From Candidatus Roizmanbacteria bacterium RIFCSPHIGHO2_02_FULL_40_13b (lineage in GTDB: Bacteria; Patescibacteriota; Microgenomatia; UBA1406; HO2-37-13b): a stretch of DNA of 47,942 nucleotides. The position numbers and the translations under genes are program-made. Numbering within the stretch: the first letter of the stretch is position 1; each line of letters starts with the position of its first letter. Below are positions 2,305 through 18,055 of this stretch, piece after piece. The stretch is from assembly GCA_001789445.1 (NCBI GenBank), contig MFZQ01000029.1, positions 1 to 47,942 on the forward strand. Direction: 5' to 3'. The notes beneath the pieces are model-generated. The model was not told the DNA's origin. It saw nothing but the letters and a program-made list of their open reading frames with translations, and did not search any database.

Positions 2305-2309
2305 AAATT

Positions 2310-3475: not shown

Positions 3476-4729
3476 ATGGATAGTAAAAAATCGCTACCTT
3501 CAATTTCAACGTTATTTCGGGATTCGTGGCAGATGTTTACGAAATCAATACTTTCTATTTTCCTCTTAAACATTCTCTCAATTTTGCTCTATCTAGCTGT
3601 TGGCGCAATATGTGTATTACTATTCGTTATTTCGGGCGCAGGAGCTACTTTATTTAAGACTGGAGCTTCAGGATTGCTCTCGTCGATTACTCCATCAGTA
3701 TTTTTTGGGTTTGGCGCAGTATTTGTACTGTTTTTTCTTGTAATGCTTGTTATTGGATCAGCGGTCAGTTCTGCCGCAATCCTGCTTTTTGACAGTGAAG
3801 GTAAACTATCGGTACTTGAAGCCTTTAGGAAAGGAATAACACTTATCATCCCACTTACTGCGGTCGGATTAATACACTTATTTCTAGGTATGGGAGGATT
3901 TTTTGTATTTGTTTTCCCCGGTATTATTATTTCATATTTACTTGCATTTTCCTCATTTGAAGTAATCCTTAATGGAAAACGTCCAATGGAGGCAATTAAA
4001 CGATCGGTTTCGATTGTTAGTCATAATTTTGGTGATATTTTTGTACGATGGTTTGTACTAATTCTTGTGTATTTCGGGATTGCGTTTGTACTACCTGGCT
4101 TGCTGGGGGCAATTAGCAAAGAACTCAAAATATATGTGACAGGTTTATCCTTTATTGTTAATATGTTTCTCGGTTGGTATATTCTTGCATTTAACGTAAC
4201 ACTCTATAAGCAATTCAAAGATTTGGCTCATTCAAAGGATGTAAAAAGCATTACTTGGATGTGGATTGTGGCGATTATAGGATGGATTATTGCGCTTCTC
4301 GTTTTTTTTGCAGGATGGAAGCTGATTACTTCACCTGCTTTCTTGGATGCATTTACGAAGAACGTAAAAACAAATAGTGCGCCCTATGCTTTTCCCACAA
4401 CCTCGCATACCCAAGTTCCTCTTCCAACAGCAGGGAGTTATCAGCCGGCGAGTTCAAACTGCACACAATATCCCATTCGAGAGGGAGAATTTACGAGTGA
4501 TAAGTGTTATAGCGCCAAAGATTACAGTGATTTACTCTATTATTTACAACGATATGATAGTGCTGCGTCCGTATACAATGGTGCTATTGCGTCAATGAAT
4601 ATTACCTGTAATGGAAGTGAATTCTTTAAAGATGCATGTGCGCGTGATACAACCGACAAAACAAATGCTGAAAATGATATTAATAACTACAAGGGAATAA
4701 TAACTGCAATTATTTCTCGAGGGAAGTAA
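3476..4729 (+). CDS. polytopic membrane protein with a Cys-containing extracytoplasmic C-terminal domain, function unknown
   Basis: The ORF-track start at 3428 is a TTG. ATG at 3476 is preceded by TTGACA (3440-3445), 17 nt, TTTAAT, then 7 nt. Multiple hydrophobic segments are followed by a soluble tail with 4 Cys. Confidence 0.6.
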   Translation: MDSKKSLPSISTLFRDSWQMFTKSILSIFLLNILSILLYLAVGAICVLLFVISGAGATLFKTGASGLLSSITPSVFFGFGAVFVLFFLVMLVIGSAVSSAAILLFDSEGKLSVLEAFRKGITLIIPLTAVGLIHLFLGMGGFFVFVFPGIIISYLLAFSSFEVILNGKRPMEAIKRSVSIVSHNFGDIFVRWFVLILVYFGIAFVLPGLLGAISKELKIYVTGLSFIVNMFLGWYILAFNVTLYKQFKDLAHSKDVKSITWMWIVAIIGWIIALLVFFAGWKLITSPAFLDAFTKNVKTNSAPYAFPTTSHTQVPLPTAGSYQPASSNCTQYPIREGEFTSDKCYSAKDYSDLLYYLQRYDSAASVYNGAIASMNITCNGSEFFKDACARDTTDKTNAENDINNYKGIITAIISRGK

Positions 4730-4809
4730 TACAGTTTAGACCCTTTTGTATCCTTTCTTTCTACATAATCTCACTTGAAATGACTATAACAATCTTTGTA
4801 CCCTTAATT

Positions 4810-4898
4810 AGTAGTTAGTAGGGAGTAGAAAGTAGTTAGGGGGTAAAACAGATAAGTTTGTATTCCTAGCTACTTCCTACTTTCTACTTTCTACTATT
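4810..4898. repeat. inverted pair of heptamer arrays: (AGTAGNN)x4 at 4810-4841 and (CTACTNN)x4 at 4865-4898
   Basis: Left arm AGTAGTT AGTAGGG AGTAGAA AGTAGTT AGGG. Right arm CCTAGCTACTTCCTACTTTCTACTTTCTACTATT is its imperfect reverse complement. It lies just upstream of the SD (AAGGGGGTG) of the 4918 gene. Confidence 0.7.
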
Positions 4899-4917
4899 CG
4901 AAAGGGGGTGATAATAA

Positions 4918-5259
4918 ATGAATACAAAACAAGTAGCTCTTTCTATTTTTTCAGGAGTAATGATGTTCAGTCCACTATTGGGCTCGGTTCACGCGTCAAC
5001 AGTAAATTGCAGTAGCAATACAACCACCGTTGTTTCATCATCGAGCACAAATGTGTTATTTGCGTCCCAAACAGTTATTTCTGGCAATAGCACTGGTGGA
5101 AATGGAACGTGGGGAAATATTGGTGGCGGCAGTATACGAACAGGCAGGGCTTGGTCAGTTTCAAACCAAAGTATCCGTGCAAACAACAATGACACCTTTA
5201 TCGGAGTAACCGGAGGTGGAACAAGAAACAATTGTGTCGTAGTAAATACGGGTAACTAA
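4918..5259 (+). CDS. small secreted Asn/Ser/Gly/Thr-rich protein, unknown function
   Basis: 113 aa. Signal-peptide-like N-terminus (ALSIFSGVMMFSPLLGSVHA/ST), a good SD GGGGGTG 7 nt upstream, and a hairpin terminator downstream. Confidence 0.6.
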   Translation: MNTKQVALSIFSGVMMFSPLLGSVHASTVNCSSNTTTVVSSSSTNVLFASQTVISGNSTGGNGTWGNIGGGSIRTGRAWSVSNQSIRANNNDTFIGVTGGGTRNNCVVVNTGN

Positions 5260-5281
5260 CAGTATTTTTACGTACTTATAT

Positions 5282-5310
5282 GGGGAGGCATACGTCTCCC
5301 CTTTTCTTTT
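5282..5310 (+). terminator. rho-independent terminator of the 4918 gene
   Basis: GGGGAGGC-ATAC-GTCTCCCC stem-loop (8 bp including one G-U pair) followed by TTTTCTTTT. Confidence 0.65.
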
Positions 5311-5785
5311 ACTGCGAAATACATTCACATACTGCGCCTTGGCACGCTTTCACCGTTCCTGCAGGACATGGAGAATCTTTGGTTTGTTCCATGTTGTAGT
5401 CAAGTTCTACACAATATCCATTTTGACACGGTCGGCCAGAACAATCACCATTTGATGTACAAGCACGTGAAGTTCTCCCTATACATTGGCACAAGCTACC
5501 CTCACATACGCGCACCCATCCGTCGGCGCAGGCGATCGTGGGCTCAACAGAGGGAAAGGGGACTGGTGTGGAAGTAGTCTCGGGTTCTCGAGGACTTGTT
5601 GGTTCAAGAGTTCGCGAGCTTGTGGGTTGTGGTTCAGTTGTTGGGCGAGTTTTATTCGAATTAACTGCGAGTGCAAAACTGATTCCCAAAATTGCCATGA
5701 GTATGAAAAAAAATACAACTATTATCTTTTTCATGAGCGAAGGGGCTTCAGAATTCTCTACAGTCGGTAATGGAGTGTAATTCAT
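5309..5785 (-). CDS. membrane-anchored/secreted Pro/Thr-linker protein with a 12-Cys C-terminal domain
   Basis: 158 aa. Hydrophobic segment IIVVFFFILMAILGISFALA, then a P/T/S/E-rich linker, then a Cys-rich module. The module contains an internal repeat: CADGWVRVCEGSLCQCI and CPAGTVKACQGAVCECI. TACAAT lies 6 nt upstream of the ATG. Confidence 0.65.
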   Translation of the reverse strand: MNYTPLPTVENSEAPSLMKKIIVVFFFILMAILGISFALAVNSNKTRPTTEPQPTSSRTLEPTSPREPETTSTPVPFPSVEPTIACADGWVRVCEGSLCQCIGRTSRACTSNGDCSGRPCQNGYCVELDYNMEQTKDSPCPAGTVKACQGAVCECISQ

Positions 5786-5806
5786 ACTTTTATTGTAGCA
5801 GAAAAA

Positions 5807-7015
5807 TTATTCGTATCGAATAGCATCAATCGGTGATAAATTTGCGGCTTTGCGGGCAGGAAATACTCCAAAAATTATACCAATAAGTGAAGAAACGCCG
5901 AATGCGATGAGGACTGAAGTGAGATCAATGTAGGCAGGGAAGACTTTTTGAATGAGAAGAACAATTAAGAATGAAAGTGCCACTCCACTTGCCCCCCCAA
6001 CAAGCGACAAAAGTACCGATTCTGCCAAAAACTGTGCCAAAATATCTCTGCTTGTTGCACCAATTGCCCGGCGGATTCCAATCTCCCGGGTGCGCTCAAC
6101 AACAGAAACGTACATAATATTCATAATTCCAATTCCACCGACGATGAGGGAGATTGCACCTATGAGAACCAAAATGCTGTTTAAAACGGAAAAAATGGAA
6201 CTGACGGCATTCAAAATTTCCGTTTGCTCAATGACCGAAAAGTCGTCCTCGCCATAACGAGAAAGTAACGAATCACTGATCCGCGCTTTTGCCACATTCA
6301 CTGCTTTTTCATTCGCAACTTTTATATATATCCCAATAAAATTCTTGTCAGGATTGAAACTGTACGCTGATTTATATGGAACGTACGTAAAACTATCAAA
6401 ATCTGGTCCACCAAATCCTCCGCCTCCTTTTGAATCCAAAATTCCAATTACTCGAAACGCCTGGCCTTCAATTTGCACCGTTCGTCCCAGAGCCGTACCC
6501 ACCGAGCCGAAAATTTTCTGTGCAATTTTCGGACCAATTACTGCAACCTTGGTTCTTTTTTCAACATCAGTTTTTTTGAAAAGCCGACCTTTATCGATCG
6601 TTAGGTTTCGAATGGCAAACATATCGGCAGTTGTTGCGAATAAATCAGAAACCTCTGTTTTTTTTCCAGCTGAAAGACTTACTGATTTTGAAAAAATAGG
6701 GACAACATACGTTACCTGGGAAACTTTTTTGAGGCGTGCAACATCGCGTTCATCAAATTTAACGCCTCCCAGCGCACTTGACCCACCTCGAAAATTCCCT
6801 CCCGATAAAATTTTTCCCGGAAGAACGATTACTAAATTTGTTCCCAGACTTTCAAATTGATTTTTTATGTATTGTTTCAATCCGAGTCCGAATGAAATGA
6901 GGAGGACGACGGAGGCCACTCCAATGAGAATTCCCAAAGAAGTTAAAAAAGTGCGAATTTTATTTCGTCTGAAATCTTCAAACGCTGTTTTTAGAATGAA
7001 TGTTAAATATTTCAT
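5807..7015 (-). CDS. ABC transporter permease, MacB/FtsX family (YknZ-like)
   Basis: 402 aa. N-terminal TM, a large extracytoplasmic domain, and a C-terminal FtsX-type 3-TM bundle (GIMNIMYVSVVERTREIGIRRAIGA). Confidence 0.9.
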   Translation of the reverse strand: MKYLTFILKTAFEDFRRNKIRTFLTSLGILIGVASVVLLISFGLGLKQYIKNQFESLGTNLVIVLPGKILSGGNFRGGSSALGGVKFDERDVARLKKVSQVTYVVPIFSKSVSLSAGKKTEVSDLFATTADMFAIRNLTIDKGRLFKKTDVEKRTKVAVIGPKIAQKIFGSVGTALGRTVQIEGQAFRVIGILDSKGGGGFGGPDFDSFTYVPYKSAYSFNPDKNFIGIYIKVANEKAVNVAKARISDSLLSRYGEDDFSVIEQTEILNAVSSIFSVLNSILVLIGAISLIVGGIGIMNIMYVSVVERTREIGIRRAIGATSRDILAQFLAESVLLSLVGGASGVALSFLIVLLIQKVFPAYIDLTSVLIAFGVSSLIGIIFGVFPARKAANLSPIDAIRYE

Positions 7016-7680
7016 TGTGCTATTTCCCCATCCACAACTTTTATTTTTCGATTGGCGCGTCGTGCTACATCGGCTTCATGTGTCACCACAATAATCGTAA
7101 TTTTATCTTTTTTATTCAACTCCTCCAAAAGCTTCAAAATCGTATCCCCCGTTTTTGAATCTAAATTTCCGGTTGGCTCGTCGGCGAGGATTAGCTCCGG
7201 TTTCATAATGAGCGCACGTGCGATTGCTACACGCTGTTGTTGACCCCCTGAAATTTTATTGGGAAATGTGTCAGCTTTTTCACCAATGCCAAATCGGGTG
7301 AGAAGTTCCATCGCGCGCTCTCGCGGTTCAAAATCGAGTATTTTTCGAGTATAAATTGTTGGCAGCATCACATTCTCAATTATTGAAAGCTTATTAATGA
7401 GATTAAATTGCTGAAACACAAATCCCACAAATTCATTACGCATCATCGAAATATCATCGTCTGAAAGAGTAGAAACATCAACATTATTAATCAGTACTGC
7501 TCCGTCAGACGGTTTGTCTAATAGACCGATTATATGCATGAGCGTGGATTTTCCCGATCCAGAAGGTCCTGCGATGGCAACAAATTCACCGCGTTTTATG
7601 GTGAATGTTACGTTTTTCAAAACGGTCAGTTCCTCGCCTTCCAGCTCATACGTTTTAGATACCTTACTGAGTGAAATCAT
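7012..7680 (-). CDS. ABC transporter ATP-binding protein (MacB/LolD/YknY-like)
   Basis: Walker A GPSGSGKST, signature ISGGQQQRVAIARAL, Walker B ILADEPTGNLD, H-loop VTHE. Confidence 0.95.
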   Translation of the reverse strand: MISLSKVSKTYELEGEELTVLKNVTFTIKRGEFVAIAGPSGSGKSTLMHIIGLLDKPSDGAVLINNVDVSTLSDDDISMMRNEFVGFVFQQFNLINKLSIIENVMLPTIYTRKILDFEPRERAMELLTRFGIGEKADTFPNKISGGQQQRVAIARALIMKPELILADEPTGNLDSKTGDTILKLLEELNKKDKITIIVVTHEADVARRANRKIKVVDGEIAQ

Positions 7681-8695
7681 ACACGGTGTCGTTTTGTTGT
7701 AAACCCGAAGTTATCTCAATTTTCTCATCGCTTTCAAGCCCTGTTTTCACGAATCGTTTGTCGGGCTTTCCATTTTTCAACACGTTCACGTATTTTTTGC
7801 CATCACCGTCTTCTTTCACAAACAGTTGGGGAATAGTGAGCGTATTTTGGCGTTCACGGATACTAAATTCCACGTCTCCGGTCATCCCTAGTCGATATTT
7901 ATCTTTCCAGCCGGTTGCAAGGGGAAGTTTTACGGTGTACACCGTTGATGATTCTCCACTTTTTGGAACAAACGAGATTTGGGAAATTGTAGCATTCATA
8001 TGCTCATCAGTAAACGAATCAAGCGTAATTGTTCCTGCTTTTCCTTGTTGAAGCTGTGTTATTTCGCTTTGGTCGGCGGTTGATGAGAAATAAATAGAGT
8101 TTGGATTAATGATCTCAAATTGTGCGCTTGTGGGAACAACATTGACCCCTGCGATTGGCACAGTTATCGAAGTAACAAATCCCTCAATGGGACTGTATAG
8201 GTTCGCATATTTGATTGCAATATCATTAAGCTCCACATCAATCACAGAGTTTTCAAGCGTGTATTGAGAATCCGCAAGCGTGCGACTGATTGCTTCCGTC
8301 AGCGCAACATCTTTATTGTCAGCCTTCGTTTGGTCAAAATTGAGCCGTGTTTGCGCGTATGTATTGAGCTGTTTTTGTAGGCGTTTTTTCAATTCTTGCT
8401 GATTAAGTGAAGCGATATACTGCCCCTTTTTCACGTAGTCTCCTTCTTTTATGGCAACCTGCGCCAGCTGACCGGCTGTTTGAAACTGCAAAACCACGCG
8501 TTCATCAGCAGAAATTGAGCCAGAAAGGGTAAGCGTTTCGCGAATGGATTCTTTTTGAACGATTGCTTTGGGAATAGTAGTGTTTTTTGCAAGATTTGAG
8601 CGTGATTGGATGAAGACGAAAAGTAAAATTACAACAACTCCAGCCACCTGTTTCTTATGTTTTGAAAGCAATTCTTTTACTCTTTCACCATTCAT
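7664..8695 (-). CDS. HlyD/MacA-family membrane fusion (periplasmic adaptor) protein
   Basis: 343 aa. N-terminal TM, lipoyl-like hairpin blocks (GDYVKKGQYIASL ... SPIEGFVTSI), a coiled-coil middle, and a beta-barrel C-terminus. It overlaps the ATPase gene, giving the order MFP-ATPase-permease. Confidence 0.8.
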   Translation of the reverse strand: MNGERVKELLSKHKKQVAGVVVILLFVFIQSRSNLAKNTTIPKAIVQKESIRETLTLSGSISADERVVLQFQTAGQLAQVAIKEGDYVKKGQYIASLNQQELKKRLQKQLNTYAQTRLNFDQTKADNKDVALTEAISRTLADSQYTLENSVIDVELNDIAIKYANLYSPIEGFVTSITVPIAGVNVVPTSAQFEIINPNSIYFSSTADQSEITQLQQGKAGTITLDSFTDEHMNATISQISFVPKSGESSTVYTVKLPLATGWKDKYRLGMTGDVEFSIRERQNTLTIPQLFVKEDGDGKKYVNVLKNGKPDKRFVKTGLESDEKIEITSGLQQNDTVYDFTQ

Positions 8696-8750
8696 GAAAG
8701 GTATTATACAGAACTTCTTGCTATAATAAAGGGGTAAAGATTGTTGGAGT

Positions 8751-8822
8751 GGCCTGATGGTGAAGTGGAAACACGGAAGTCTGCAAAACTTCTATGCACC
8801 GGTTCGATTCCGGTTCAGGCCT
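8751..8822 (+). tRNA. tRNA-Cys (anticodon GCA)
   Basis: 72-nt cloverleaf: acceptor GGCCTGA/TCAGGCC, anticodon stem GAAGT/ACTTC with loop CTGCAAA, T arm ACCGG-TTCGATT-CCGGT, discriminator T as expected for tRNA-Cys. TGCTATAAT lies upstream. Confidence 0.9.
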
Positions 8823-8835
8823 CACAATTCTGCGC

Positions 8836-8863
8836 TTGACAACGAAACTGATTATGTTATAAG
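8836..8863 (+). promoter_or_regulatory. sigma70-like promoter of the 8870 gene (TTGACA-16 nt-TATAAG), ATG 6 nt downstream
   Basis: Read directly: TTGACA at 8836-8841 and TATAAG at 8858-8863. There is no SD before the ATG at 8870. Confidence 0.5.
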
Positions 8864-8869
8864 TCTTGT

Positions 8870-9631
8870 ATGCCAAATCCCAATGGGCCGGAGGGAGAAG
8901 GAAGAAGATTTGCACCTGTTATAGATGTTGTTGAAGATCCCGATATTCTGTGGCGTACAACACTGGGGCGAAGTGTGTGCGATCGAATAGAAGAAGCTAT
9001 GGGCCACCGTCCCCTTCCAATAGATCTCACCAAAGGAACTCTTTCACCAGGCGGAGTTGATGCAGATTTGCATCAATTTAGATGGAACGTGCGAGAAACA
9101 GAAGGCGGTACCGATGGGCGGCCTAAAATAGATAAAAGTCTTGGGTACTCTTTTGGAACGCATTCTCTTGCGGGAAAATCTGTAGTACATATACCTACTG
9201 CAAGTAGACCAGTAGATGTTCGTTGGTTGAAACGAGACGTGTCCCTTGCTCTTTGGGAACGTAAAGGTCAGTGGCATCCACGACCATTAACAACAATAGT
9301 TGCCTCGTGGCGGGGAGAAACAGTAAGTCCGCATTTTCCAAGTGGTAATAACCAAAATACGTTGGTCCTAAATTTCCATGAAAATGGAAGCTATTATCTT
9401 GTTGCAAAGTTTGCAACAGAACCAGGAGAGTTAGATATAACTGCCGCCTTAGATCCCGACTCTGATTATTGGGAAACTCCGGACGGAGTACCCACAGCAG
9501 ATGCAATAAAAGTACAGGAACTTTTTGGGGTAAGTTCTGAACTACTGAAAGGATGGGATGGTTCCAAGTTACCTGCATTAATGCACCACGCGCTTGTAGC
9601 CGCCCAACCTACCACGATAGCTTCTGAATAA
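8870..9631 (+). CDS. hypothetical protein (orphan, soluble)
   Basis: 253-aa ORF with its own promoter and a downstream hairpin. No motif I recognise. Richer in G+C than the flanks. Confidence 0.6.
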   Translation: MPNPNGPEGEGRRFAPVIDVVEDPDILWRTTLGRSVCDRIEEAMGHRPLPIDLTKGTLSPGGVDADLHQFRWNVRETEGGTDGRPKIDKSLGYSFGTHSLAGKSVVHIPTASRPVDVRWLKRDVSLALWERKGQWHPRPLTTIVASWRGETVSPHFPSGNNQNTLVLNFHENGSYYLVAKFATEPGELDITAALDPDSDYWETPDGVPTADAIKVQELFGVSSELLKGWDGSKLPALMHHALVAAQPTTIASE

Positions 9632-9633
9632 TT

Positions 9634-9648
9634 CCACTCCGGGAGTGG
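9634..9648. terminator. conserved island hairpin copy 1 (CCACTCCGGGAGTGG followed by TTTGGG), between convergent genes
   Basis: 6-bp stem CCACTC/GAGTGG. Near-identical copies lie at 11917-11931 and 12674-12688. Confidence 0.5.
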
Positions 9649-9654
9649 TTTGGG

Positions 9655-10281
9655 CTACTCACCCGAAAAATAATATCCCTCGCGCTTCTTGGTTCGTAAC
9701 CGTTGAGGATTTTTCGGATCCTTCTCTATTTTCCGGCGAATAGTAACTATATGAACCCGAAGATCATTTTGTGCCTTTTCATCGCTATTATAAAATACTT
9801 TTTCAGATAATTTTTCAGGTGAAATAGGACTATCGCTTCGCATGATTGTTTCAAGAATAGTTGTCTGCAATTTAGATAATTTTGCAGTTCGAGCACCATC
9901 ACAATACTCTCCTGAATGAAGATCTAGTGTAGAAACCCCAGTCTTGATAACTTCATTTGATGCGGCTATTTCGGGAATTTTTAGCATGAAGCCGCGTTGA
10001 ATATGCATATCAATAAATTGAATTTTGGGGTCACTCTGGGTTATTTTGAGGCGGACATTGAATAAATGTACCCGCAACGCTTCTTGGAAGTGCCTATCAC
10101 CTTTGCCATATATAAATTCAGCAACAGTACTTAAAAGAAAATACACATTTGGATGTCGTAAAAAATGTATGACTATGTTCATTTCAGTTGGAGTGAGACT
10201 AATTGTTGTTTCTCCAACAGTAAAATTTCGTGTACTAATATCTAATCGATATTGTCCAACGGTAATAATGTCACCAGACAT
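9655..10281 (-). CDS. DNA-binding protein with two tandem OmpR/PhoB-type winged-helix domains and no receiver domain
   Basis: 208 aa. Domain 1: YRLDISTRNFTVGETTISLTPTEMNIVIHFL...ALRVHLFNVRLKI...RGFML. Domain 2: TLDLHSGEY...KLSKLQTTILETIM...DLRVHIVTIRRKIEKDPKNPQRLRTKKREGYYF. Both follow the Trans_reg_C pattern. Confidence 0.75.
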   Translation of the reverse strand: MSGDIITVGQYRLDISTRNFTVGETTISLTPTEMNIVIHFLRHPNVYFLLSTVAEFIYGKGDRHFQEALRVHLFNVRLKITQSDPKIQFIDMHIQRGFMLKIPEIAASNEVIKTGVSTLDLHSGEYCDGARTAKLSKLQTTILETIMRSDSPISPEKLSEKVFYNSDEKAQNDLRVHIVTIRRKIEKDPKNPQRLRTKKREGYYFSGE

Positions 10282-10310
10282 ATCTTCTGAAATATCTCTT
10301 TTATCTTTTC

Positions 10311-11102
10311 TTATTTCCCCCCCACTTGTGATTGATCGTAATCGAGAACCTTCTTAGGTAGTTTGAATTGTTGACCTAAAATTTGAAAAAAGATTGATAT
10401 AGTGTGTCTTTCTTGTGGTCTGATCAAAAGCTGGTTTTTACCGAGTATAAAAAAACCATACGGTATAAGTCTGTGAATTCTTTCCATAACGACTTCAGGA
10501 TCCATATAACGAAATAACCCCTCCATTGAAACTGCGATCGGCTGATCATCTGTCGGTTTTCCAGAAGTTGCGACGCGGGCTTTTATTTTCTGTTCCAACC
10601 ATATTAAAAGTGTAATGTCAGTTTTGTCCATAAGAGGAGGATTGATTCCTCGCCACCATTCTGGCTCTAATTTTAAAGCCACATTTTTGTCTTTTTCAAG
10701 AACCGTAGCCAACACAATGGGGGAAACTGCGAGAATAATCGACTGTTCGTCAACTGGAATAATCACCCCTCGTTCTGTCATCTCAACTACTGTTTCATAC
10801 CATAGGTTCGTTCCGTTGGGACGGTCCATTCGTTCTGCAAGAGTATCGATTTGAAGCGTGGGAATGAGTCGTTTTATAACTGCGACATCTGTTAAAGTGA
10901 TAATATCTCCTAAAAACTGCCTTGTTACGGGATCTGCTTTGAAAGTGTTCATACCTTTCCCATCAGCAAAAACAGCAATTTCTCTGGTATTTGAAGAGGG
11001 AATAACATATATTGGTGTTTGAATCAAGGTGACGGGAGTCCAACGATAATACGCACTTAGGTCGTCAGGAGTTGCTACTGGGCCTTCTTTTTCACGATTC
11101 AT
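10311..11102 (-). CDS. hypothetical protein (orphan, soluble)
   Basis: 263-aa ORF and the middle gene of the minus-strand three-gene unit. No recognisable motif. Confidence 0.6.
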   Translation of the reverse strand: MNREKEGPVATPDDLSAYYRWTPVTLIQTPIYVIPSSNTREIAVFADGKGMNTFKADPVTRQFLGDIITLTDVAVIKRLIPTLQIDTLAERMDRPNGTNLWYETVVEMTERGVIIPVDEQSIILAVSPIVLATVLEKDKNVALKLEPEWWRGINPPLMDKTDITLLIWLEQKIKARVATSGKPTDDQPIAVSMEGLFRYMDPEVVMERIHRLIPYGFFILGKNQLLIRPQERHTISIFFQILGQQFKLPKKVLDYDQSQVGGK

Positions 11103-11184
11103 GGCCCTATTCTACCATCTCGTGCCTGGTTTGGGTTGTCAAAAAACTTGCTTTTCACACACAAATTTAACCACCAGTCCCGAC

Positions 11185-11853
11185 TCAACCACGTCGGCGA
11201 CTATATCCAAAGTATTTATCAATAGCTGTATTAGTTACAGGATATTTTTGATAATATCTGGCGTCAGCGAAAAATCGGTCAAACTGAAACTGGACTTGTT
11301 CGAAAGTACTAGGTTCTTGCGGCAAATAAAGATCCAATACTCCAGCTCGATTTGGATCCAAACCTTCTCCTTCTTTCTTCCATTGCCCAAAATATAGACT
11401 TCTATCGTATGGACTTGCTGGACCTATTGCACCACATACTGAGGTGCGATTTGAAACGTAGCTTGCTGTCCCACTTGTAGCAGTAAATCGAACATCCGAA
11501 TATCCAATTGGAGCGGTAAGGTCGAGTTCTGCGTTGACGTGAAGTGGTAATGTAGCTCTTTCTTCTCTATCAAATGCATGAAAATCTAATCCTTCAAAAT
11601 CATATCCATGTCCAGGGGGGGGCACACCAAACAAAACAAATTTTAGTTTTCCAGTAGCTGTTCCATCATCAAAACTTAAAGGAACATCAATAGCACGATA
11701 ACCAGTAGCCGATTTTGAAGTATGAAGTCCTGCTAAATCAGGTATTACAACAAAAGGCTCTCCCCAACGTATAACAAGAGGTTCCCTCACAATAGGTTCA
11801 CCTGCTTTAGTATCAGCTAGAGCAACAACTGGAGGAATACTTTCTACTGTCAT
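11185..11853 (-). CDS. hypothetical protein (orphan, soluble)
   Basis: 222-aa ORF and the first gene of the minus-strand unit. The promoter lies directly upstream. No recognisable motif. Confidence 0.6.
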   Translation of the reverse strand: MTVESIPPVVALADTKAGEPIVREPLVIRWGEPFVVIPDLAGLHTSKSATGYRAIDVPLSFDDGTATGKLKFVLFGVPPPGHGYDFEGLDFHAFDREERATLPLHVNAELDLTAPIGYSDVRFTATSGTASYVSNRTSVCGAIGPASPYDRSLYFGQWKKEGEGLDPNRAGVLDLYLPQEPSTFEQVQFQFDRFFADARYYQKYPVTNTAIDKYFGYSRRRG

Positions 11854-11861
11854 TTGAGGAG

Positions 11862-11890
11862 ATTATGACAGGTCTTTTGACTATTGTCAA
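11862..11890 (-). promoter_or_regulatory. promoter of the 11853-9655 unit (TTGACA-17 nt-CATAAT), ATG 8 nt downstream
   Basis: The minus strand reads GCTTGACAATAGTCAAAAGACCTGTCATAATCTCCTCAAATG. Confidence 0.5.
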
Positions 11891-11916
11891 GCACATGTTC
11901 AGGACCCACACATTTT

Positions 11917-11931
11917 CCACCTCCGGAGTGG
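11917..11931. repeat. conserved island hairpin copy 2 (CCACCTCCGGAGTGG followed by TTTTGG)
   Basis: Same element as 9634 and 12674, with one bulged C. It sits in the divergent intergenic region. Confidence 0.5.
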
Positions 11932-11944
11932 TTTTGGTGACTTT

Positions 11945-11964
11945 TAGCCCTTGTACAAAGGCTA
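11945..11964. promoter_or_regulatory. 20-nt near-perfect palindrome TAGCCCTTGTACAAAGGCTA, candidate antitoxin operator
   Basis: It lies immediately upstream of the TAAAAT -10 box (11972-11977) of the toxin gene. ATG follows 6 nt after the -10. Confidence 0.4.
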
Positions 11965-11983
11965 AACATGGTAAAATACTAAA

Positions 11984-12334
11984 ATGTCTGGGGTTACAGT
12001 AATTTATTACACAACTGCGCGAGGTGAAAATGTAATTGTAAAATTTCTCGACTCACTTTCAGAAACTGCACAAGCTAAAGTACTCCGAATTTTTGCCCAT
12101 TTAGAGGAATACGGACTAACGGCAATTATTCCATATATTAAGAAAGTTATTGGCACGGACCTTTGGGAAATACGAATTCTAGGGAAAGATAGTTTGAGAA
12201 TTTTGTATATTATTCCTACAAAAACCACTATTTTGGTTCTCCATGGTTTTAAAAAGAAAACGCAAAAAACACCCCCAAAAGAAATTTCTATTGCGCTTTC
12301 TCGTTATAGAGAGTGGATTATGAAAAACTCTTGA
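11984..12334 (+). CDS. type II toxin, RelE/HigB superfamily (phage Gp49-like / DUF891 type)
   Basis: 116 aa. LWEIRILGKDSLRILYIIPTKTTILVLHGFKKKTQKTPPKEISIALSRYREW matches the Gp49-like pattern (yElR...yRi.y......lLh.F.KKtqktP..Ei..A). Confidence 0.8.
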   Translation: MSGVTVIYYTTARGENVIVKFLDSLSETAQAKVLRIFAHLEEYGLTAIIPYIKKVIGTDLWEIRILGKDSLRILYIIPTKTTILVLHGFKKKTQKTPPKEISIALSRYREWIMKNS

Positions 12335-12360
12335 CAATCTGACACCATATATGATATCAT
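12331..12360 (+). promoter_or_regulatory. internal promoter for the antitoxin (TTGACA-18 nt-TATCAT), ATG 6 nt downstream
   Basis: TCTTGACAATCT overlaps the toxin stop codon. The same 12-mer occurs at 47284-47295. Confidence 0.4.
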
Positions 12361-12366
12361 CTCAAT

Positions 12367-12654
12367 ATGAGAAACAGACAATCATATACATTTCGAGAGG
12401 ATCTAGCAAAAAGATTAAAAGATCCCACATTTAAAAAAGCTTGGGAGGAGTCAGAAGCCGAATATTTGCTTGCAAAAAGAATGATTGAAGTACGATTAAT
12501 GAAAAAGCTAACTCAACGAGAATTAGCACAAAGGGTAAAAACATCACAAACACAAATTGCCCGCATTGAAACAATGAGTGCAAATCCTTCACTTCATACT
12601 TTAAAAAGAATCGCGAAAGCCCTTGACACAAAACTAATACTCAATTTCAAATAA
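12367..12654 (+). CDS. XRE-family HTH antitoxin (HigA-like)
   Basis: 95 aa. KKLTQRELAQRVKTSQTQIARIETMSANPSLHTLKRIAKAL is a canonical HTH_3 domain. It lies downstream of the toxin, as in higBA. Confidence 0.85.
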   Translation: MRNRQSYTFREDLAKRLKDPTFKKAWEESEAEYLLAKRMIEVRLMKKLTQRELAQRVKTSQTQIARIETMSANPSLHTLKRIAKALDTKLILNFK

Positions 12655-12673
12655 TCAATGTAATCCATTTTTC

Positions 12674-12688
12674 CCACTCCTGGAGTGG
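12674..12688 (+). terminator. conserved island hairpin copy 3 (CCACTCCTGGAGTGG followed by TTTGG)
   Basis: It follows the antitoxin stop codon. The downstream 14-mer AAACTTGCTTTTCA (12701-12714) is repeated exactly at 11144-11157. Confidence 0.55.
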
Positions 12689-12747
12689 TTTGGCTCTTCC
12701 AAACTTGCTTTTCATCCTCATTTATGCTATAATTACCGCCTATCTGT

Positions 12748-13329
12748 ATGATAGGAACCATTAAGCTCGCCCTGGTGGCGAGCATATTTTTGTTCTCCAT
12801 ACCGACCGTACGGGCAGACTTCTCTCCCCCACAAGCACACCGGTGTTCAACGCCGTTTGCGTGCGAACAAACAGTCACAAAGGTCTATTACGGTCCTGCA
12901 AAAGAAGAGGCTACACCGGTCAAAACGGTCTTTGAATCAATTCAAAAAACATATACTCCTCCTGGATTTAATGAATCAGCCAGCCTAAATAGCACGATTA
13001 TTTTCTCAAATATTAATACAATTCGTTCGGGGCGTGGCTTACCTTCATTCGAGCAAAGTGGTGAACTGCGAAGTTTGGCTCTTTCCCGGCTTTCCGAGCT
13101 TGAAGGAGAAATTACCTCTGGACGCTTTCACAGTGGGCTCTATGCTCGAAAACTACCGTATTGGGTGACTGAAAACATGAAATATGGGTCTGATGAGGCT
13201 GGAACTGTGAATTGGTGGATGAATTCATACATTCATAGGTCTGCAATTCTGGGAAATTCAAAGTATTCAAGCGGTGCATGCCTCGGAAATGCCTGTATCC
13301 AACTCTTCTCAAACTTCGTGCCTAAATAA
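12748..13329 (+). CDS. secreted CAP/SCP (YkwD-like) domain protein
   Basis: 193 aa. Signal peptide ending TVRA/DF. CAP pattern: NTIRSGRGLPSF...LALSRLSEL...FHSG...ENMKYG...WMNSYIHRSAILG...SSGAC. Confidence 0.75.
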   Translation: MIGTIKLALVASIFLFSIPTVRADFSPPQAHRCSTPFACEQTVTKVYYGPAKEEATPVKTVFESIQKTYTPPGFNESASLNSTIIFSNINTIRSGRGLPSFEQSGELRSLALSRLSELEGEITSGRFHSGLYARKLPYWVTENMKYGSDEAGTVNWWMNSYIHRSAILGNSKYSSGACLGNACIQLFSNFVPK

Positions 13330-14407
13330 ACGGACTCCAGTCTCCAATCGGAGCTACGTTGTGCCCGATAAAGTTCCAGACAAACAGGTACACCGCGGGT
13401 AGGAGCAATAAGGCTACATACATAAACTTCTTTGATGTCAAGGTTTTCTCATACGCAATAAGCACAAACGGCACTACGGGTAGTATATATCGGGCAATAT
13501 CTCTGTGTTGTACGAACGTTGTAGCTACCAGGAATACGAGGCTAAAATAGAAGAAGCTCCTTTGGCGACTTTCTTTCAACAGTACCACTGCAAAGCCAAA
13601 TAAGGCAAAATAAAAGAGAATATCTTCAAGCCAAATTGTTTGTATCCATTTTGCATCAAAATTGAATGCGGCAAAGGGGTAGAGAAGTGGCACGACTGAT
13701 TGGGTATGAAAGTATGCGAAAAAATCCCCCATTTGGGCTGCATACAAACTAAACACTCCGAGTAATCCAGCAGGGATTAAAAGAATATAGAGTGATTTGC
13801 TATCAAATTTCCTTGTACGCATGAATTGTTCCAGATACACTAAGAAATAAGCTAGAAAAAGGAGTATTCCCGGAGTCTTGCACATGGCGGCCAAGCCTCC
13901 GAGCACGGCTGACCAGAAGAGCTTTTTTTCTTCGAATAAATATAAAGATGCGAAAATAAGAAGCATAAATAGGCTTTCAGGGGCGCCGACTGAACGAGTG
14001 ATCAGGAATCGGGGGATGAAAAGGAAGATTGAGGCTAATAAGAGCGGTTTTTCACTAAGATTTAATTTTTTCACTACGAAATAAAAGAGCCATACGAGAG
14101 TTACTGTTGAGGCGATATTTACAAAAAGCATCGATTTTAGGTAGCCGAGAATTGGCGCAAATACTCGTATAAATAGGGGATACAGAGGGAGATGTGCGGC
14201 AAAGTACTCGGGTGATAGGTTTAGGCCGACACCCAAAACTTCTATCGCTTGTGGATTGTAGAGCGTTTTTGCAGGAATAATGTAAAAAGGACCATCGAAA
14301 TTTGCGTAAATAATCAGAAAATTGTGTAAAAAAGGGAGCCAAACGACTGCGGTACTCACTAAAGTCAAAATAAGTAAGGTAAAATAAGGATGTATGAAAC
14401 GTTTCAT
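13322..14407 (-). CDS. GT-C-like polytopic membrane glycosyltransferase (PIG-V/mannosyltransferase-like)
   Basis: Polytopic protein with an early FDGPFYIIPAKTLY loop (compare the WDxxxY motif of PIG-V-like enzymes). I prefer the start MKRFIHPYF at 14407 (TACAAT 7 nt upstream) over the upstream ATG at 14446 used in the ORF track. Confidence 0.65.
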   Translation of the reverse strand: MKRFIHPYFTLLILTLVSTAVVWLPFLHNFLIIYANFDGPFYIIPAKTLYNPQAIEVLGVGLNLSPEYFAAHLPLYPLFIRVFAPILGYLKSMLFVNIASTVTLVWLFYFVVKKLNLSEKPLLLASIFLFIPRFLITRSVGAPESLFMLLIFASLYLFEEKKLFWSAVLGGLAAMCKTPGILLFLAYFLVYLEQFMRTRKFDSKSLYILLIPAGLLGVFSLYAAQMGDFFAYFHTQSVVPLLYPFAAFNFDAKWIQTIWLEDILFYFALFGFAVVLLKESRQRSFFYFSLVFLVATTFVQHRDIARYILPVVPFVLIAYEKTLTSKKFMYVALLLLPAVYLFVWNFIGHNVAPIGDWSPFI

Positions 14408-15863
14408 CAAAAATATTGTAGCAAAAAATCTGCCATTTACACTCATTTTCGCAATTGCCGCTTTTTTACGATTATTTCGAGTTGAGGAATTTATTACATT
14501 TTTATCTGATCAAGGAAGAGATGCGCTCATTATTAAGGATATTGTTACTTTTAAGCATTTTCCTCTTATTGGAGCGCCCACATCGATTGGGCAGGTTTTT
14601 TTAGGCCCCGCATACTACTATTTTGTGGCCCCGTTCCTTCTAATTTACAACTTTAATCCAGCTGGCCTAGCCTACGGAGTCGCATTTTACATGCTTATTG
14701 GGATCATTGCTTGCTATGTACTAATTAAGCGTGAAGTTGATGTACAGGTTGCACTCCTATTTTCACTCATAACTGCTTTTTCAGCCGTAAATATTACTCT
14801 CTCTCGATTTTCATGGAACCCAAATCTGTTACCCCTTTCCTCATTTTTCGCACTTTTCTCTTTGTATAAATTGATGAAGGATCGATCGGTAATAGCTGGA
14901 GTATTTTTTGGATTTTTTCTTGGGTTATCGTTCCAATTCCACTATCTCGCACTCTTCCTCTTGCCGTCAATAGGTATTGTATATCTATTTTTCCTCTACA
15001 AACATAAGGTATTTAAGAGTTTTCGCACGCTATTCTTCGTCCCGCTACTTTCTTTCATTGTTACTATAAGTCCACTCGTTTTTTTTGATCTGCGCCATGG
15101 ATTTATTAATAGTAAAAATTTTATTACGCTCTTTTCTATTCAAAAAGATGTACCACACGAACTTTTTTCCACCAAGTTTTTGAACGTAAACAGTGCATTT
15201 TACAGCCTTTTTTTTAATATTCCAGTGAGTATAAGCTTAGCTCTTCTCATAAGTCTCCTAGTCTTAATCGTATATCTATTAATCTCAAAAAGAAAAAAGG
15301 TCTCATTGTTAATTCATATAAATTTCCTTACCTTTTTTCTTTTTATAATCTCTTTCTCTCTCGTCCAAACTCCTCGACATATTCATTATTTCACACCGAT
15401 ATATTTTAGCTTCACACTTGTACTGGCATATTTTTTGGCACAAATTGCCTCAATGAAGGGAAAGTGGATTGTAATAGTATCGCTTATTCTCGTACTATTC
15501 ATATATCAAAATGTGTATACACTTCCGTTTTTTTCCCCGGCTGGGAACGGACAAATTAAGCATGCGCAAACGGTGGCGGAGTTTATGCTTCCTAAAATTG
15601 GAGATAAACCATTTAACATAGCGGTGTGGCCAGTATATTTTAGTGAAGACAATTATGTTTACTTTTTAAGTCTTGCGGGTCACACGCCGGCAGACAGAGC
15701 AAAAGTGGAGGTGACGGATCAGATGTTTGTCCTGTGTAATGAGGAGCCGTGTTTAGTACTAAATTCTCCTTCGTGGAACATTTCTATGTTTGGACGTGCG
15801 GAAATTGATAAAATATGGATTGTTGAAGGGATAAAAATTTACAAACTCGTCCATGCAAAATAA
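14394..15863 (+). CDS. GT-C-like polytopic membrane glycosyltransferase (ArnT/GT39-like; paralog of 34653)
   Basis: 489 aa, more than 10 TM segments. The first-loop motif SDQGRDALIIKDIV parallels YDQGRDFLKAEEIV in 34653-36188. Confidence 0.7.
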   Translation: MKRFIKNIVAKNLPFTLIFAIAAFLRLFRVEEFITFLSDQGRDALIIKDIVTFKHFPLIGAPTSIGQVFLGPAYYYFVAPFLLIYNFNPAGLAYGVAFYMLIGIIACYVLIKREVDVQVALLFSLITAFSAVNITLSRFSWNPNLLPLSSFFALFSLYKLMKDRSVIAGVFFGFFLGLSFQFHYLALFLLPSIGIVYLFFLYKHKVFKSFRTLFFVPLLSFIVTISPLVFFDLRHGFINSKNFITLFSIQKDVPHELFSTKFLNVNSAFYSLFFNIPVSISLALLISLLVLIVYLLISKRKKVSLLIHINFLTFFLFIISFSLVQTPRHIHYFTPIYFSFTLVLAYFLAQIASMKGKWIVIVSLILVLFIYQNVYTLPFFSPAGNGQIKHAQTVAEFMLPKIGDKPFNIAVWPVYFSEDNYVYFLSLAGHTPADRAKVEVTDQMFVLCNEEPCLVLNSPSWNISMFGRAEIDKIWIVEGIKIYKLVHAK

Positions 15864-16605
15864 CGTATCACTAATCATTCCTTGTTTCAACGAGGAGGCA
15901 AATATTCAAAAAGGGGTACTTGATAAGATCGGGAATTACACACGACATCACGATGAATATTACGAAGTAATAATTGTTGACGATGGTTCTACAGATGATT
16001 CGGCCGTAATAATAAAAAATGAGTATCTTTCCGATTTTCCAAAATTTCGATTGATTGAGAATAAACATGCGGGGAAAGGGGAAGCGGTGATTGCTGGAAT
16101 TGAGGCGGCAAAAGGAGACGCTGTTCTTTTTGCGGACATTGATTTGGCGACCCCACTTGAGGAAGCGAGTAAACTTCTCGAGGAAACTAGAGACGAGTTC
16201 CCTATCGTTATTGGGTCCCGAAAGAGTGGGCGCATTGGCGCACCAATACTTCGAAAACTGCAATCTGCTGGATTTATTATCATTCGGGATATTTTCTTAG
16301 GTTTGGGTGGAATTAGAGATACCCAATGTGGCTTTAAGCTATTCAGGACAAAGGAAGCAATGGAGATTATCTCGAGGCTACAGGTTTTTGGGAAAAATTA
16401 TAAGGTGGAAGGCTCCTCTGTTTCTGCTGGATTTGACTTAGAATTTTTATTTATTGCACGAAAATTAGGATATGGCATAAAAGAGGTTCCCGTGCGCTGG
16501 AAACATGTAGAGACGAAGAATGTGAAGTTTATAAAAGATACCGTGGAGACACTTAAAGACTTGGCACAAATAAAATATTATTCGATCACGGGACGATATG
16601 ACTAA
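15853..16605 (+). CDS. GT2 polyprenyl-phosphate glycosyltransferase (DPM1/ALG5/ArnC-like)
   Basis: 250 aa: SLIIPCFNEE, VDDGSTDDS, FADIDLATP (DxD) and DTQCGFKLF. Confidence 0.9.
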   Translation: MQNNVSLIIPCFNEEANIQKGVLDKIGNYTRHHDEYYEVIIVDDGSTDDSAVIIKNEYLSDFPKFRLIENKHAGKGEAVIAGIEAAKGDAVLFADIDLATPLEEASKLLEETRDEFPIVIGSRKSGRIGAPILRKLQSAGFIIIRDIFLGLGGIRDTQCGFKLFRTKEAMEIISRLQVFGKNYKVEGSSVSAGFDLEFLFIARKLGYGIKEVPVRWKHVETKNVKFIKDTVETLKDLAQIKYYSITGRYD

Positions 16606-18043
16606 ATATTTACGCATCGTCTTCTTTTTTCTAGTATCTCTCTACCTTCTATCCTCCATTATCAACCTTCAAGGTTCATATTTATACGATTGGGATGAAG
16701 CGATTTATGCACAAGTCGGGAGGGAAATGGTGGCGAATAAGACGATTTTTGGGGTGTGGAATGGGGCACCGTGGCTTGAAAAGCCACCGCTTGTTCCTCT
16801 AATTTCTGGATTATTTATGAAGTTTCCATTAGGATCAACCGAGTTTTTGGCTCGTCTCCCCTCTTTTCTCGCAGGACTTGGAGTGCTATATCTACTCTTT
16901 AAGATTTTGAAAGAGAAGTTCAAGAAAGAGTATCTGAAGTATTTTACCATTACAACCACATTTCTCTTGCTTTCAGCTCCATTTATGAATAGGATGACTT
17001 CGTTAAATACAGACATCTTCCTCGTCTTCGGCTGGCTCGGATTTTATTATTACTACAAAAAGAGTTTCGTCGCCTCAACACTCTTTCTTTTCATAGCTGT
17101 CATGTCGAAATCTTTCCTCGGCTTTTTCCCAATTCTTGTAATTCTGATAGAATCTGTCATTCTTGAGCGAAGCGATAGAATCTCAACCGTCATCCTGAAT
17201 CGCCGGCTGGCAGTGAAGGATCTCGGTGTGGCTGTATTAATCAGTCTTACTTGGTTTTTTCTTGCTTTCCTCCGCTTCGGAAATCTTTTCCTCCAAGAAA
17301 ACCTTTATGACCATCTCGTCGCTCGGGTTGTAAAGCCTGTAGAGCTTCACTACGGCGGCTATCTCTTTTATCCAAAGCTCCTTTTTAGCTATTACAATAT
17401 TTTTCTCATACTGATAATAATCTCAATTGCCTATATTCTCTATTCACTCGTAGAGCGAAAGAGAAAGGAACTACTTTTTATTCCGCTCTTTTTAATGTAT
17501 GGAGCCATCATTTCGCTCGCCAAAACGAAGTTGAACTGGTATATTTTTCCAATTCTCCCATTCCTTGGGCTCTCATTCTCGATATTAATAATGGATTTCT
17601 TGAAGAAGTTTAAAATTAAAGATACTGTACTTTGGCTAGTATTATCAGTAATTTTCTTTGTTGGAGTCTTTGTAAGCGGAGGATTTACGCTTCGTTTGCA
17701 CAAGGAGAAGCCAACGGATCTGGTTTCACTTGCGCTTTACGCAAAAACAAAATGCAGAAGTACAGCGATCGTTGCAAATAATGATGAGCAGAAGTTTTTT
17801 GATGTTATTAACGCGGCAAATGTGCAGATTTCATCAACATTCCGCTATGGGGGATCCCCTTCATTTCGATTTTACGCTGACCAGCTAGTGCTTTATAAAT
17901 ACGATAAAACTCCAAATCGCGACATAGTTGATCACACTGATTGTGTAATTATTCCCCTAGACTCTCATTTCTTATTTAAATCTAAAGATTGGGAAGTAAG
18001 CACCCAAAAAGACGGATTCGTATTGTATAAGCAGATAAATTGA
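16598..18043 (+). CDS. GT39/ArnT-PMT-family GT-C glycosyltransferase
   Basis: 481 aa. First-loop signature YDWDEAIYAQVGREM...PWLEKPPL is typical of ArnT/PMT_2. Polytopic. Confidence 0.85.
   Translation: MTKYLRIVFFFLVSLYLLSSIINLQGSYLYDWDEAIYAQVGREMVANKTIFGVWNGAPWLEKPPLVPLISGLFMKFPLGSTEFLARLPSFLAGLGVLYLLFKILKEKFKKEYLKYFTITTTFLLLSAPFMNRMTSLNTDIFLVFGWLGFYYYYKKSFVASTLFLFIAVMSKSFLGFFPILVILIESVILERSDRISTVILNRRLAVKDLGVAVLISLTWFFLAFLRFGNLFLQENLYDHLVARVVKPVELHYGGYLFYPKLLFSYYNIFLILIIISIAYILYSLVERKRKELLFIPLFLMYGAIISLAKTKLNWYIFPILPFLGLSFSILIMDFLKKFKIKDTVLWLVLSVIFFVGVFVSGGFTLRLHKEKPTDLVSLALYAKTKCRSTAIVANNDEQKFFDVINAANVQISSTFRYGGSPSFRFYADQLVLYKYDKTPNRDIVDHTDCVIIPLDSHFLFKSKDWEVSTQKDGFVLYKQIN
17166..17232. 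repeat. two adjacent GTCAT...GATC hairpin mini-elements inside the CDS
   Basis: GTCATTCTTGAGCGAAGCGATAGAATC and GTCATCCTGAATCGCCGGCTGGCAGTGAAGGATC are translated as VILERSDRISTVILNRRLAVKDL. The trailing ATCTCGGTGTGG is shared with 33631-33642. Confidence 0.7.
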
Positions 18044-18055
18044 TATAATGAAATC

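Follow-up and report, generated by a model that had tools for sequence, protein, structure and literature searches.

What occupies the 3.9 kb between a tRNA-Cys gene and the gene of a CAP-like secreted protein in contig MFZQ01000029.1, and what is its origin? The contig (47,942 nt, assembly GCA_001789445.1) was analysed over its whole length and is referred to here as the window. An initial annotation, made by eye, had described the block as an island of orphan genes with shifted content of guanine plus cytosine (G+C), and proposed a horizontally acquired module of defence or conflict type. Our analysis leads to a more modest answer: most likely, this is an ordinary, small and non-autonomous accessory islet, combined with a mildly novel regulator family. 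Its contents most likely are an addiction module, a split receiver-less regulator with multiple winged helix-turn-helix (wHTH) domains, belonging to a rare family of the Candidate Phyla Radiation (CPR), and two strongly promoted soluble orphans.

Judged by the adjacent MacB permease, the nearest genomes are those represented by two loci, L006 and L007 (82 and 80% amino-acid identity, respectively), followed by many metagenome-assembled genomes (MAGs) of Candidatus Roizmanbacteria, Gottesmanbacteria and Microgenomates at 50-60%; from the names of these relatives we infer a Microgenomates-type, Roizmanbacteria-like CPR bacterium as the host. Both loci are collinear with the window on either side of the block. 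On the left, the ordinary chromosomal genes of an exporter (membrane fusion protein, ABC-ATPase and MacB) are 63-82% identical; on the right, where the CAP-like gene is followed by numerous consecutive glycosyltransferase genes (PMT_2 and GT2), six genes, from the CAP-like one to that of a PMT_2 protein of 499 amino acids (aa), are 44-80% identical. In both siblings, the CAP-like gene begins about 65 nt after tRNA-Cys, nothing is inserted, and the short spacer retains an intact promoter. The alignment with L006 extends to window position 8828, which places the left border immediately after the tRNA, and homology with the empty sites restarts at about 12699/12700, in the promoter region of the CAP-like gene (CAAACTTG...TATAAT). 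None of the six proteins encoded in between (A, B, C, D, HigB and HigA) found a tblastn match in 80 related loci of 20 kb each. Because tRNA-Cys is directly followed by the CAP-like gene in the two collinear closest species, and because none of the six island proteins was matched in the 80 related loci, the block is accessory. The initial annotation had placed tRNA-Cys at the left edge, followed by four open reading frames (ORFs), which ARAGORN, Rfam and the ORF table confirm, and had named an empty site in relatives as a check of the accessory nature; this check is positive in both siblings. Positions ~8824-12699 are thus a 3.9-kb accessory insert between tRNA-Cys and the CAP-like gene; our confidence in the reading as a whole, including the assembly and the gene functions proposed below, lies somewhat above even. 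Besides the tRNA, the Rfam scan returned no match.

The same DNA is widespread at one site. The window sequence matches NCBI assembly GCA_001787945.1 (contig MFZH01000023.1, Rifle aquifer), and sequence that is 99.96-100% identical is also contained in ENA, JGI and Logan assemblies of the Rifle site. The block itself is carried, at 99.96-100% identity, by 19-23 contigs drawn from many Rifle samples; in the population of this aquifer it is fixed. An analysis of dN/dS in the population gave no signal, as the five further assemblies match the window at 99.96-100% identity.

Inside the insert three modules can be distinguished, namely A, D-C-B and higB-higA, and each of them ends on its right side in one copy of a palindromic element of 26-28 nt, TYCCACTCCNGGAGTGGTTTGG (hp1 to hp3 in Table 1). 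Three copies of this element occur in the 48-kb window vs 0.02 expected, all of them within the insert, and none was found in the 80 related loci, in viral contigs or in another 10 kb examined from this genome. Two simple explanations of the palindrome were rejected: as a widespread repeat, a metagenome scan gave seven matches, all in unrelated contigs of 54-69% G+C and by our estimate about as many as expected by chance; as a strong or pure terminator, it has stems of 5-6 bp and z-scores of -0.1 to -1.9, and hp2 has no gene to terminate, so that this function fits two of the three copies. The spacer between B and C furthermore contains a diverged copy of the junction formed by hp3 and the CAP promoter. 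The resulting direct repeats of 45 nt (11116-11160 and 12671-12714) bracket B and higBA, 1.56 kb in total, an arrangement that suggests a stepwise accretion at one spot with at least two insertion steps. No recombinase that could account for such steps is present in the insert or its surroundings (Pfam). A putative att core, GGTTTG, common to hp3 and the L007 spacer, was discarded, as it matches in 7/8 nt, is not kept in L006 and probably is due to chance. From the cassette arrays of integrons the block differs in that no integrase lies near it and in that the 26-nt palindrome is far shorter than attC and, by eye, has no GTTRRRY core.

Table 1. Features of the insert and its borders (window coordinates; -35 and -10, promoter elements)
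Feature	Position	Strand	Description
tRNA-Cys (GCA)	8751-8823	+	Left border of insert; ARAGORN; Rfam 63 bits
Promoter of A	8835-8863	+	CTTGACAA, 16-nt spacer, TGtTATAAG; ATG 6 nt downstream; leaderless mRNA (predicted)
ORF A	8870-9631	+	253 aa; soluble; rich in Gly, Ala, Pro, Asp, Arg
hp1 (palindrome copy 1)	9632-9659	+	TTCCACTCCGGGAGTGGTTTGG; directly after stop of A, between convergent ends of A and D
ORF D	9655-10281	-	208 aa; two OmpR/PhoB-type Trans_reg_C domains, no receiver; C-terminal half of C/D
G7 run	10317-10323	-	End of C (CAA GTG GGG GGG AAA TAA); C/D junction
ORF C	10311-11102	-	263 aa; N-terminal module of C/D; probable winged helix at ~residues 160-240
Extended -10 of C	11109-11117	-	TGGTAGAAT, 6 nt ahead of ATG
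Junction copy	11116-11160	+	B-C spacer; diverged copy of hp3/CAP-promoter junction; exact 14-mer AAACTTGCTTTTCA
ORF B	11185-11853	-	222 aa; soluble, predicted beta-rich; C8 run 11615-11622
Promoter of B	11862-11891	-	CTTGACAA, 17-nt spacer, TGtCATAAT; ATG 8 nt downstream; 11/12 consensus matches, TG present
hp2 (palindrome copy 2)	11915-11942	+	Between the B and higB promoters, which diverge; without a gene upstream that it could terminate
24-nt palindrome	11943-11966		TTTAGCCCTTGTAC/GTACAAAGGCTAAA; over weak -35 of higB; candidate HigA operator
higB-like toxin	11984-12334	+	116 aa; Gp49/PF05973, RelE/ParE superfamily
Antitoxin's own promoter	12330-12360	+	CTTGACAA, 18-nt spacer, TGaTATCAT; ATG 6 nt on; 11/12 consensus matches, TG present
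higA-like antitoxin	12367-12654	+	95 aa; Xre-type HTH_3; Pfam 7e-14
hp3 (palindrome copy 3)	12672-12699	+	After higA, right end of insert
Promoter of CAP-like gene	12700-12747	+	TTGCTT, 17-nt spacer, TATAAT, 14-nt leader; right flank; aligns with L006 and L007

The most informative genes of the insert are C and D, which had been described as two separate orphans. On the evidence of the sequences compared here, they are one gene, split at a run of seven G in this genome. Three-frame translation shows that reading in the -1 frame from the seven G onwards produces EIRKDKRDISED-MSGD, identical to the linker of P0011. The latter is an in-frame C-D fusion of 482 aa, encoded by a variant contig of the window's own population, and differs further by a Pro-to-Thr change; insertion of one G, or slippage by -1 on G GGG GGG, brings C and D into one frame. 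An exhaustive HMMER search with C, run against 1.84 billion representatives, brought up a single relative, P0015 (E 5.7e-6), whose cluster includes a full-length protein of 709 aa, P0016, encoded on another aquifer contig (L093). The N-terminal region of P0016 is 31% identical to the whole of C, and its remainder consists of four Trans_reg_C domains, equalling two copies of D, which accordingly aligns twice. Because P0011 can be aligned with P0016 from end to end (494 residues, 29% identity, E 9e-64), C and D have to be regarded as a single gene, which the window carries in split form. Of the earlier description it still holds true that C matches no family.

Regarding the type of this regulator (C/D in the following), two stretches of D match Trans_reg_C in Pfam (1e-19), confirming the tandem winged helix recognised by eye. 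NCBIfam agrees, restricted to the effector part of its models, and the best matches in the PDB are the effector domains of RpaA, PmrA/BasR and MtrA. Its domains place C/D among the DNA-binding proteins of the OmpR/PhoB effector class; it has no receiver and carries its winged helices in one chain. No match to a receiver (Response_reg) was obtained in C, D or P0016 (Pfam, NCBIfam), no kinase gene that could encode a cognate histidine kinase lies within +/-10 kb, and the N-terminal module of ~250 aa has no match in Pfam, NCBIfam or PDB. The AlphaFold2 (AF2) model of C is poor (predicted local distance difference test, pLDDT, 40.7), with an H-E-H-H-E-E pattern resembling a winged helix at residues 160-240; Foldseek found nothing significant for it, and its top matches, all winged-helix transcription factors, are a hint only. 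In viral contigs, the search for relatives of the tandem wHTH gave four weak single-domain matches.

Receiver-less regulators of the OmpR type are known in the form of ToxR/CadC and the Streptomyces antibiotic regulatory proteins (SARPs). They and the OmpR/PhoB regulators contain the same winged-helix Trans_reg_C effector domain as D. However, C/D deviates from the OmpR/PhoB response regulators in having neither receiver nor kinase, in placing the N-terminal module of ~250 aa where the receiver would be, and in combining two wHTH domains in one chain (four in P0016); in contrast to ToxR/CadC, it has no transmembrane (TM) segment, and in contrast to SARPs no BTAD. OmpR-family effector domains bind to direct repeats as head-to-tail dimers induced by phosphorylation (PMC3973317, PMC4832192). 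In C/D, a built-in head-to-tail pair of winged helices would replace this phosphorylation-induced dimerisation for the binding of DNA, and the regulator would most likely control the neighbouring, strongly promoted and leaderless genes A and/or B. On L093, the gene of P0016 is flanked by a gene for a Lon-like AAA+ protein next to groES on one side, and by two small genes and then glmS on the other. Within 1699-6071 of this contig, the preceding AAA+ protein has 361 aa and no protease domain, and the two small genes that follow encode a protein of 125 aa, which by eye may hold a winged helix, and one of 209 aa, by eye with a hydrophobic N-terminal segment.

The position of the split deserves attention of its own. 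A G8 allele, or a -1 slip, would yield the fused C/D protein and the G7 allele the separate proteins C and D. Runs of 7-8 G or C are over-represented in the window, with eight matches at five loci vs 1.6 expected, and may be hypermutable tracts; the loci are 5992, 10317, 11615, 20730 and 47354, of which three lie in genes of orphan style (the C/D junction, B and a gene at 47323). Phase-variable contingency genes controlled by homopolymers occur in Campylobacter, Neisseria and Haemophilus. The case described here is similar in that the G7 run is situated exactly at the C/D junction and in that a G8 allele of the population turns two proteins into one. It differs in that one variant contig has been seen for C/D and that the switch fuses or splits a regulator rather than toggling a surface gene on and off.

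At the right end of the insert, the HigBA-like toxin-antitoxin (TA) pair of the initial annotation is confirmed by its domains. HigB matches PF05973 over 89 of 90 profile positions (6.3e-22) as well as phrog_2523 (1.5e-22), with NCBIfam assigning RelE/ParE, and HigA belongs to the HTH_3 proteins; the toxin gene comes first and is separated from the antitoxin gene by 32 nt. HigB, as an mRNA interferase of RelE fold, and HigA, with its Xre-type HTH, would form a type II TA pair, which probably represses itself via the palindrome over its -35, and which would stabilise the block against loss. With type II modules of the HigBA kind it has the gene order, an HTH_3 antitoxin in second place, a palindrome at the promoter and the typical sizes (116 and 95 aa) in common. 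It differs from them in that higA has a near-consensus promoter of its own, the -35 of which overlaps the higB stop codon, and in that both transcripts appear leaderless.

A leaderless layout is not restricted to the insert. The initial annotation had regarded a common -35 (CTTGACAA; 8835, 11884 on the minus strand and 12330) and the ATG placed 6-8 nt after the -10 in four units as properties of the block. Both are indeed present, but the former is found at 47285 as well, with five copies in the window vs 2.1 expected, which is not significant, and the latter is the normal layout all over the window. Among 25 transcription-unit starts, defined as window genes with an upstream gap of at least 25 nt, 12 have a -10 box (at least 5/6 matches) that ends 5-9 nt before the start codon, vs 4.5% of ATG triplets, and because of this ratio we consider leaderless transcription from near-consensus promoters of sigma-70 type to be the normal unit start of the organism. 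The unrelated contig L093 shows the same layout; in the whole window and in L093 alike, few Shine-Dalgarno sequences are visible by eye. Within the insert, C has an extended -10 of its own (TGGTAGAAT), preceded by TTGACA at 11137-11142, 22 nt upstream and thus at a non-canonical spacing. Since this -10 exists, B and C/D can be transcribed separately as well as together, and from the minus-strand operon that had been claimed the ORFs remain, whereas a simple operon does not, the more so as C and D are one split gene.

A fifth unit of like design is located far from the insert, at 47285-47844 of the window, where CTTGACAA is followed by an 18-nt spacer, TATACT and, after 7 nt, an ATG at 47323. 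The gene starting there encodes 173 aa without a match in Pfam, has G+C contents at the first, second and third codon positions (GC1/GC2/GC3) of 0.65/0.45/0.18 and contains a C8 run at codons 11-13; in other assemblies it is found directly upstream of rpoB-rpoC-rpsL-rpsG-fusA. It has no sequence kinship with A, B or C, and paralogy was dismissed altogether, these four being similar neither to one another nor to anything else in the window.

The intact promoters bear on another explanation, according to which the block would be the decaying remnant of a larger mobile element, a prophage or an integrative one, which has lost its integrase, with a regulator broken by the frameshift in C/D and with functionless orphans. 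The position at the tRNA, the TA pair together with the absence of a mobility gene, the interruption of C/D relative to P0016 and P0011, and the terminator-like hp2 that has nothing to terminate are in line with such decay. Yet every ORF is intact and has a near-consensus promoter at exactly the distance that leaderless translation requires, D keeps an ATG of its own, the block is fixed, with hardly any variation among many samples, and A, B and C match no phage family. We therefore consider decay improbable and return to the reading as an accessory islet.

Little can be said about A and B beyond their general character. As inferred from their sequences, both are soluble cytoplasmic proteins; the statement that the four ORFs lack a TM or signal segment proved correct, the one borderline case being a hydrophobic stretch of C (residues 113-131, Kyte-Doolittle 1.76). 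A, B and C have no match in Pfam, NCBIfam, PADLOC or PHROGs at E-values up to 1, nor in PDB sequences, and a word-indexed search of 5.8 billion proteins returned their own clusters only. No match of A was found in phages and plasmids (tblastn) or in viral contigs, and none of significance for B, for which one plasmid sequence matched at E 0.5. That A, B and C came from a phage or plasmid was accordingly rejected, as viral contigs contained nothing and tblastn against phages and plasmids, performed for A and B only, was empty apart from this single match. The claim that the functions cannot be read from known families therefore stands for A and B; for C it stands in part only, since C/D is recognisable as a DNA-binding protein with several wHTH domains and no receiver, for which one relative could be detected.

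Could A and B be chance open frames instead of genes? Their lack of homologues and the unusable structure models would fit this, but 222 and 253 codons stay open in DNA of ~40% G+C, and 222 codons free of stops are expected at about 5e-7 per frame start (estimate from base composition). Moreover, both frames show the GC1>GC2>GC3 gradient typical of coding DNA, and near-consensus promoters lie 6-8 nt before each ATG. That A and B are not genes is, consequently, very hard to believe.

The label of a defence or conflict system did not find any evidence in our analysis. The corresponding scenario is an anti-phage defence or abortive-infection module with B and/or A as effectors, C/D as sensor or regulator and HigBA as companion. 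It may draw on the accessory, tRNA-adjacent nature of the block, on a TA pair of the type common in defence islands, on the strong promoters of the orphan genes and on matches in PADLOC, namely of the toxin to NsnC (5e-8) and of the antitoxin to the HTH, capH and RmrA models. These matches, however, cover generic RelE-like and HTH folds only, and A, B, C and D match none of the families in PADLOC-DB v2. No enzyme, nuclease, ATPase or sensor domain was detected in the block (Pfam, NCBIfam, PADLOC), and NTPase, TIR, SIR2 and protease domains are lacking as well. No defence genes are adjacent, the flanks consisting of the ABC exporter and the glycosyltransferases, and the homologue of C/D resides beside groES, the Lon-like ATPase and glmS. 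A defence module thus appears to be an unlikely identity for what we interpret as an accessory islet.

Composition had been a further argument for acquisition. The three spot counts behind it (33, 26 and 14 G+C per 60 nt) are exact but not representative of block and flanks: lines of 60 nt contain on average 24.0 G+C in the island, against 25.0 in a left flank of equal length and 23.8 in the right one. The G+C content of the island amounts to 0.400, compared with 0.409 in the left flank and 0.377 in the whole window, 23% of the windows of the same size equal or exceed it, and its tetranucleotide distance from the window average is the median. The alleged shift is not there, and with essentially no deviation in G+C and tetranucleotides, a result that the initial annotation had itself named as refuting, the compositional argument made there fails. 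The only G+C outlier is ORF A (0.459), due to GC1 and GC2. GC1/GC2/GC3 are 0.61/0.48/0.29 in A and 0.59/0.46/0.18 in B, and both are rich in G+C at positions 1 and 2 because Gly, Ala, Pro, Asp and Arg abound in their products. GC3 alone differs: its mean is 0.26 in the six island genes vs 0.33 in the other 41 genes of the window (Mann-Whitney p 0.009) and vs 0.37 in the genes of window 1-20000 (p 4e-5).

Was the block gained in this lineage, or lost in its siblings? L006 and L007 share ~80% nucleotide identity with each other vs ~67% with the window, and because one empty clade stands against one filled lineage, parsimony alone does not decide between gain and loss. The block could be ancestral to the three-species group, i.e. 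vertically inherited, lineage-specific DNA that was deleted in the ancestor of L006 and L007. The two siblings forming one clade and hence a single empty lineage, the host-like G+C and tetranucleotide usage, the host-type promoters, and the lack of both a mobility gene and an att repeat agree with such a deletion. Against it count the absence of the six genes from the 80 related loci, the missing matches of A and B among 5.8 billion proteins, the GC3 difference from adjacent genes (p 4e-5), the repeated module ends and the duplicated junction, which resemble stepwise insertion, and the short tRNA-CAP spacer of the siblings with its intact promoter. Ancestral presence followed by deletion seems unlikely to us, though it should be taken seriously, and four points, namely that no relatives are found, that GC3 differs, that a TA pair is present and that repeats structure the insert, favour a gain.

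The parsimony argument and the host-like composition nevertheless weigh against the insertion of an orphan-bearing islet, and a number of further results have to be added to them. No integrase or transposase was found in the insert (Pfam, NCBIfam, PADLOC), nor within ~8 kb on each side, and no tyrosine or serine recombinase, by which an integrase-mediated tRNA-linked island would be recognised, is present in the insert or in window 311-21102, for which precomputed Pfam hits were used. At the distal border, the repeat search did not recover the 3' end of the tRNA as a direct repeat; the sole repeat match of tRNA-Cys measures 12 nt, corresponds to the anticodon region and lies 5.4 kb off. GC3 of rpoB, rpoC, rpsL, rpsG and fusA in the same genome (0.25-0.35) overlaps the low values of the island, part of which could reflect expression rather than origin. 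The orphan status of A and B is not proven, because only the word-indexed search was applied to them, which in the case of C had missed P0016. P0016 itself occupies a housekeeping setting and not an island, without a homologue of A or B. Direct-repeat operators of the D type (spacing of 10-12 nt or 21-22 nt) were sought in the intergenic regions and none was convincing, and the single-sequence AF2 models of C (pLDDT 40.7) and B (pLDDT 35.1) are unusable as structural evidence.

With tRNA-linked islets, including the islands of Patescibacteria (PMC12455944), the block shares the location directly 3' of a tRNA, the absence in close relatives, a TA pair and orphans. It differs from them by lacking an integrase and an att repeat of the tRNA end, by its host-like composition and by a private 26-nt palindrome at the end of each module. 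Genomic islands have been reported in Patescibacteria, where most individual gene transfers take place between Patescibacteria, and CPR genomes commonly contain islets of this kind and unknown proteins in comparable numbers (PMC12455944).

Several observations concern the surroundings of the insert. The CAP-like gene (12748-13329 vs 7445-8128 in L006) is fast-evolving, with 44-45% identity to the sibling copies compared with 60-82% for its neighbours, and its product is 34 aa shorter than theirs. A tRNA-Ile with the anticodon TAT is located at window 778-850; it also occurs in nearly all related Microgenomates loci scanned (L006-L052), usually clustered with tRNA-Phe, -Gly, -Ala and -Arg. Two stretches, 30823-31567 (745 nt) and 34776-36172 (1397 nt), are devoid of ORFs of at least 90 aa in a simple gene table. 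The last ~80 nt of the window (47860-47942, after ...caattta) diverge from other assemblies of the same genome, in which the rpoB promoter region is found in their place (L094), and probably represent a contig-end artefact.

Modestly new are the domain architecture of C/D, the poly-G site at which it is split or fused and the private palindrome that ends each module. One might go further and see in C/D the first member noticed of a CPR-specific family of receiver-less multi-wHTH regulators, toggled by the poly-G run between split and fused states and thereby switching A and B, and in the 26-nt palindrome the site of an undescribed mode of cassette accretion, or of regulator binding, at a tRNA-Cys hot spot; taken as a whole, we regard this as a long shot. 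The block does not reveal a new defence system. What it does offer is a clean and well-bounded case of a streamlined CPR genome set apart by gene gain, or by differential loss, with the empty site of the siblings as its counterpart. It also illustrates that 'orphan operons' recognised by eye can hide split genes, here a single regulator composed of C and D with an architecture not contained in Pfam or NCBIfam. Finally, leaderless near-consensus promoters being the norm in this organism is a matter of importance for the annotation of CPR genomes.

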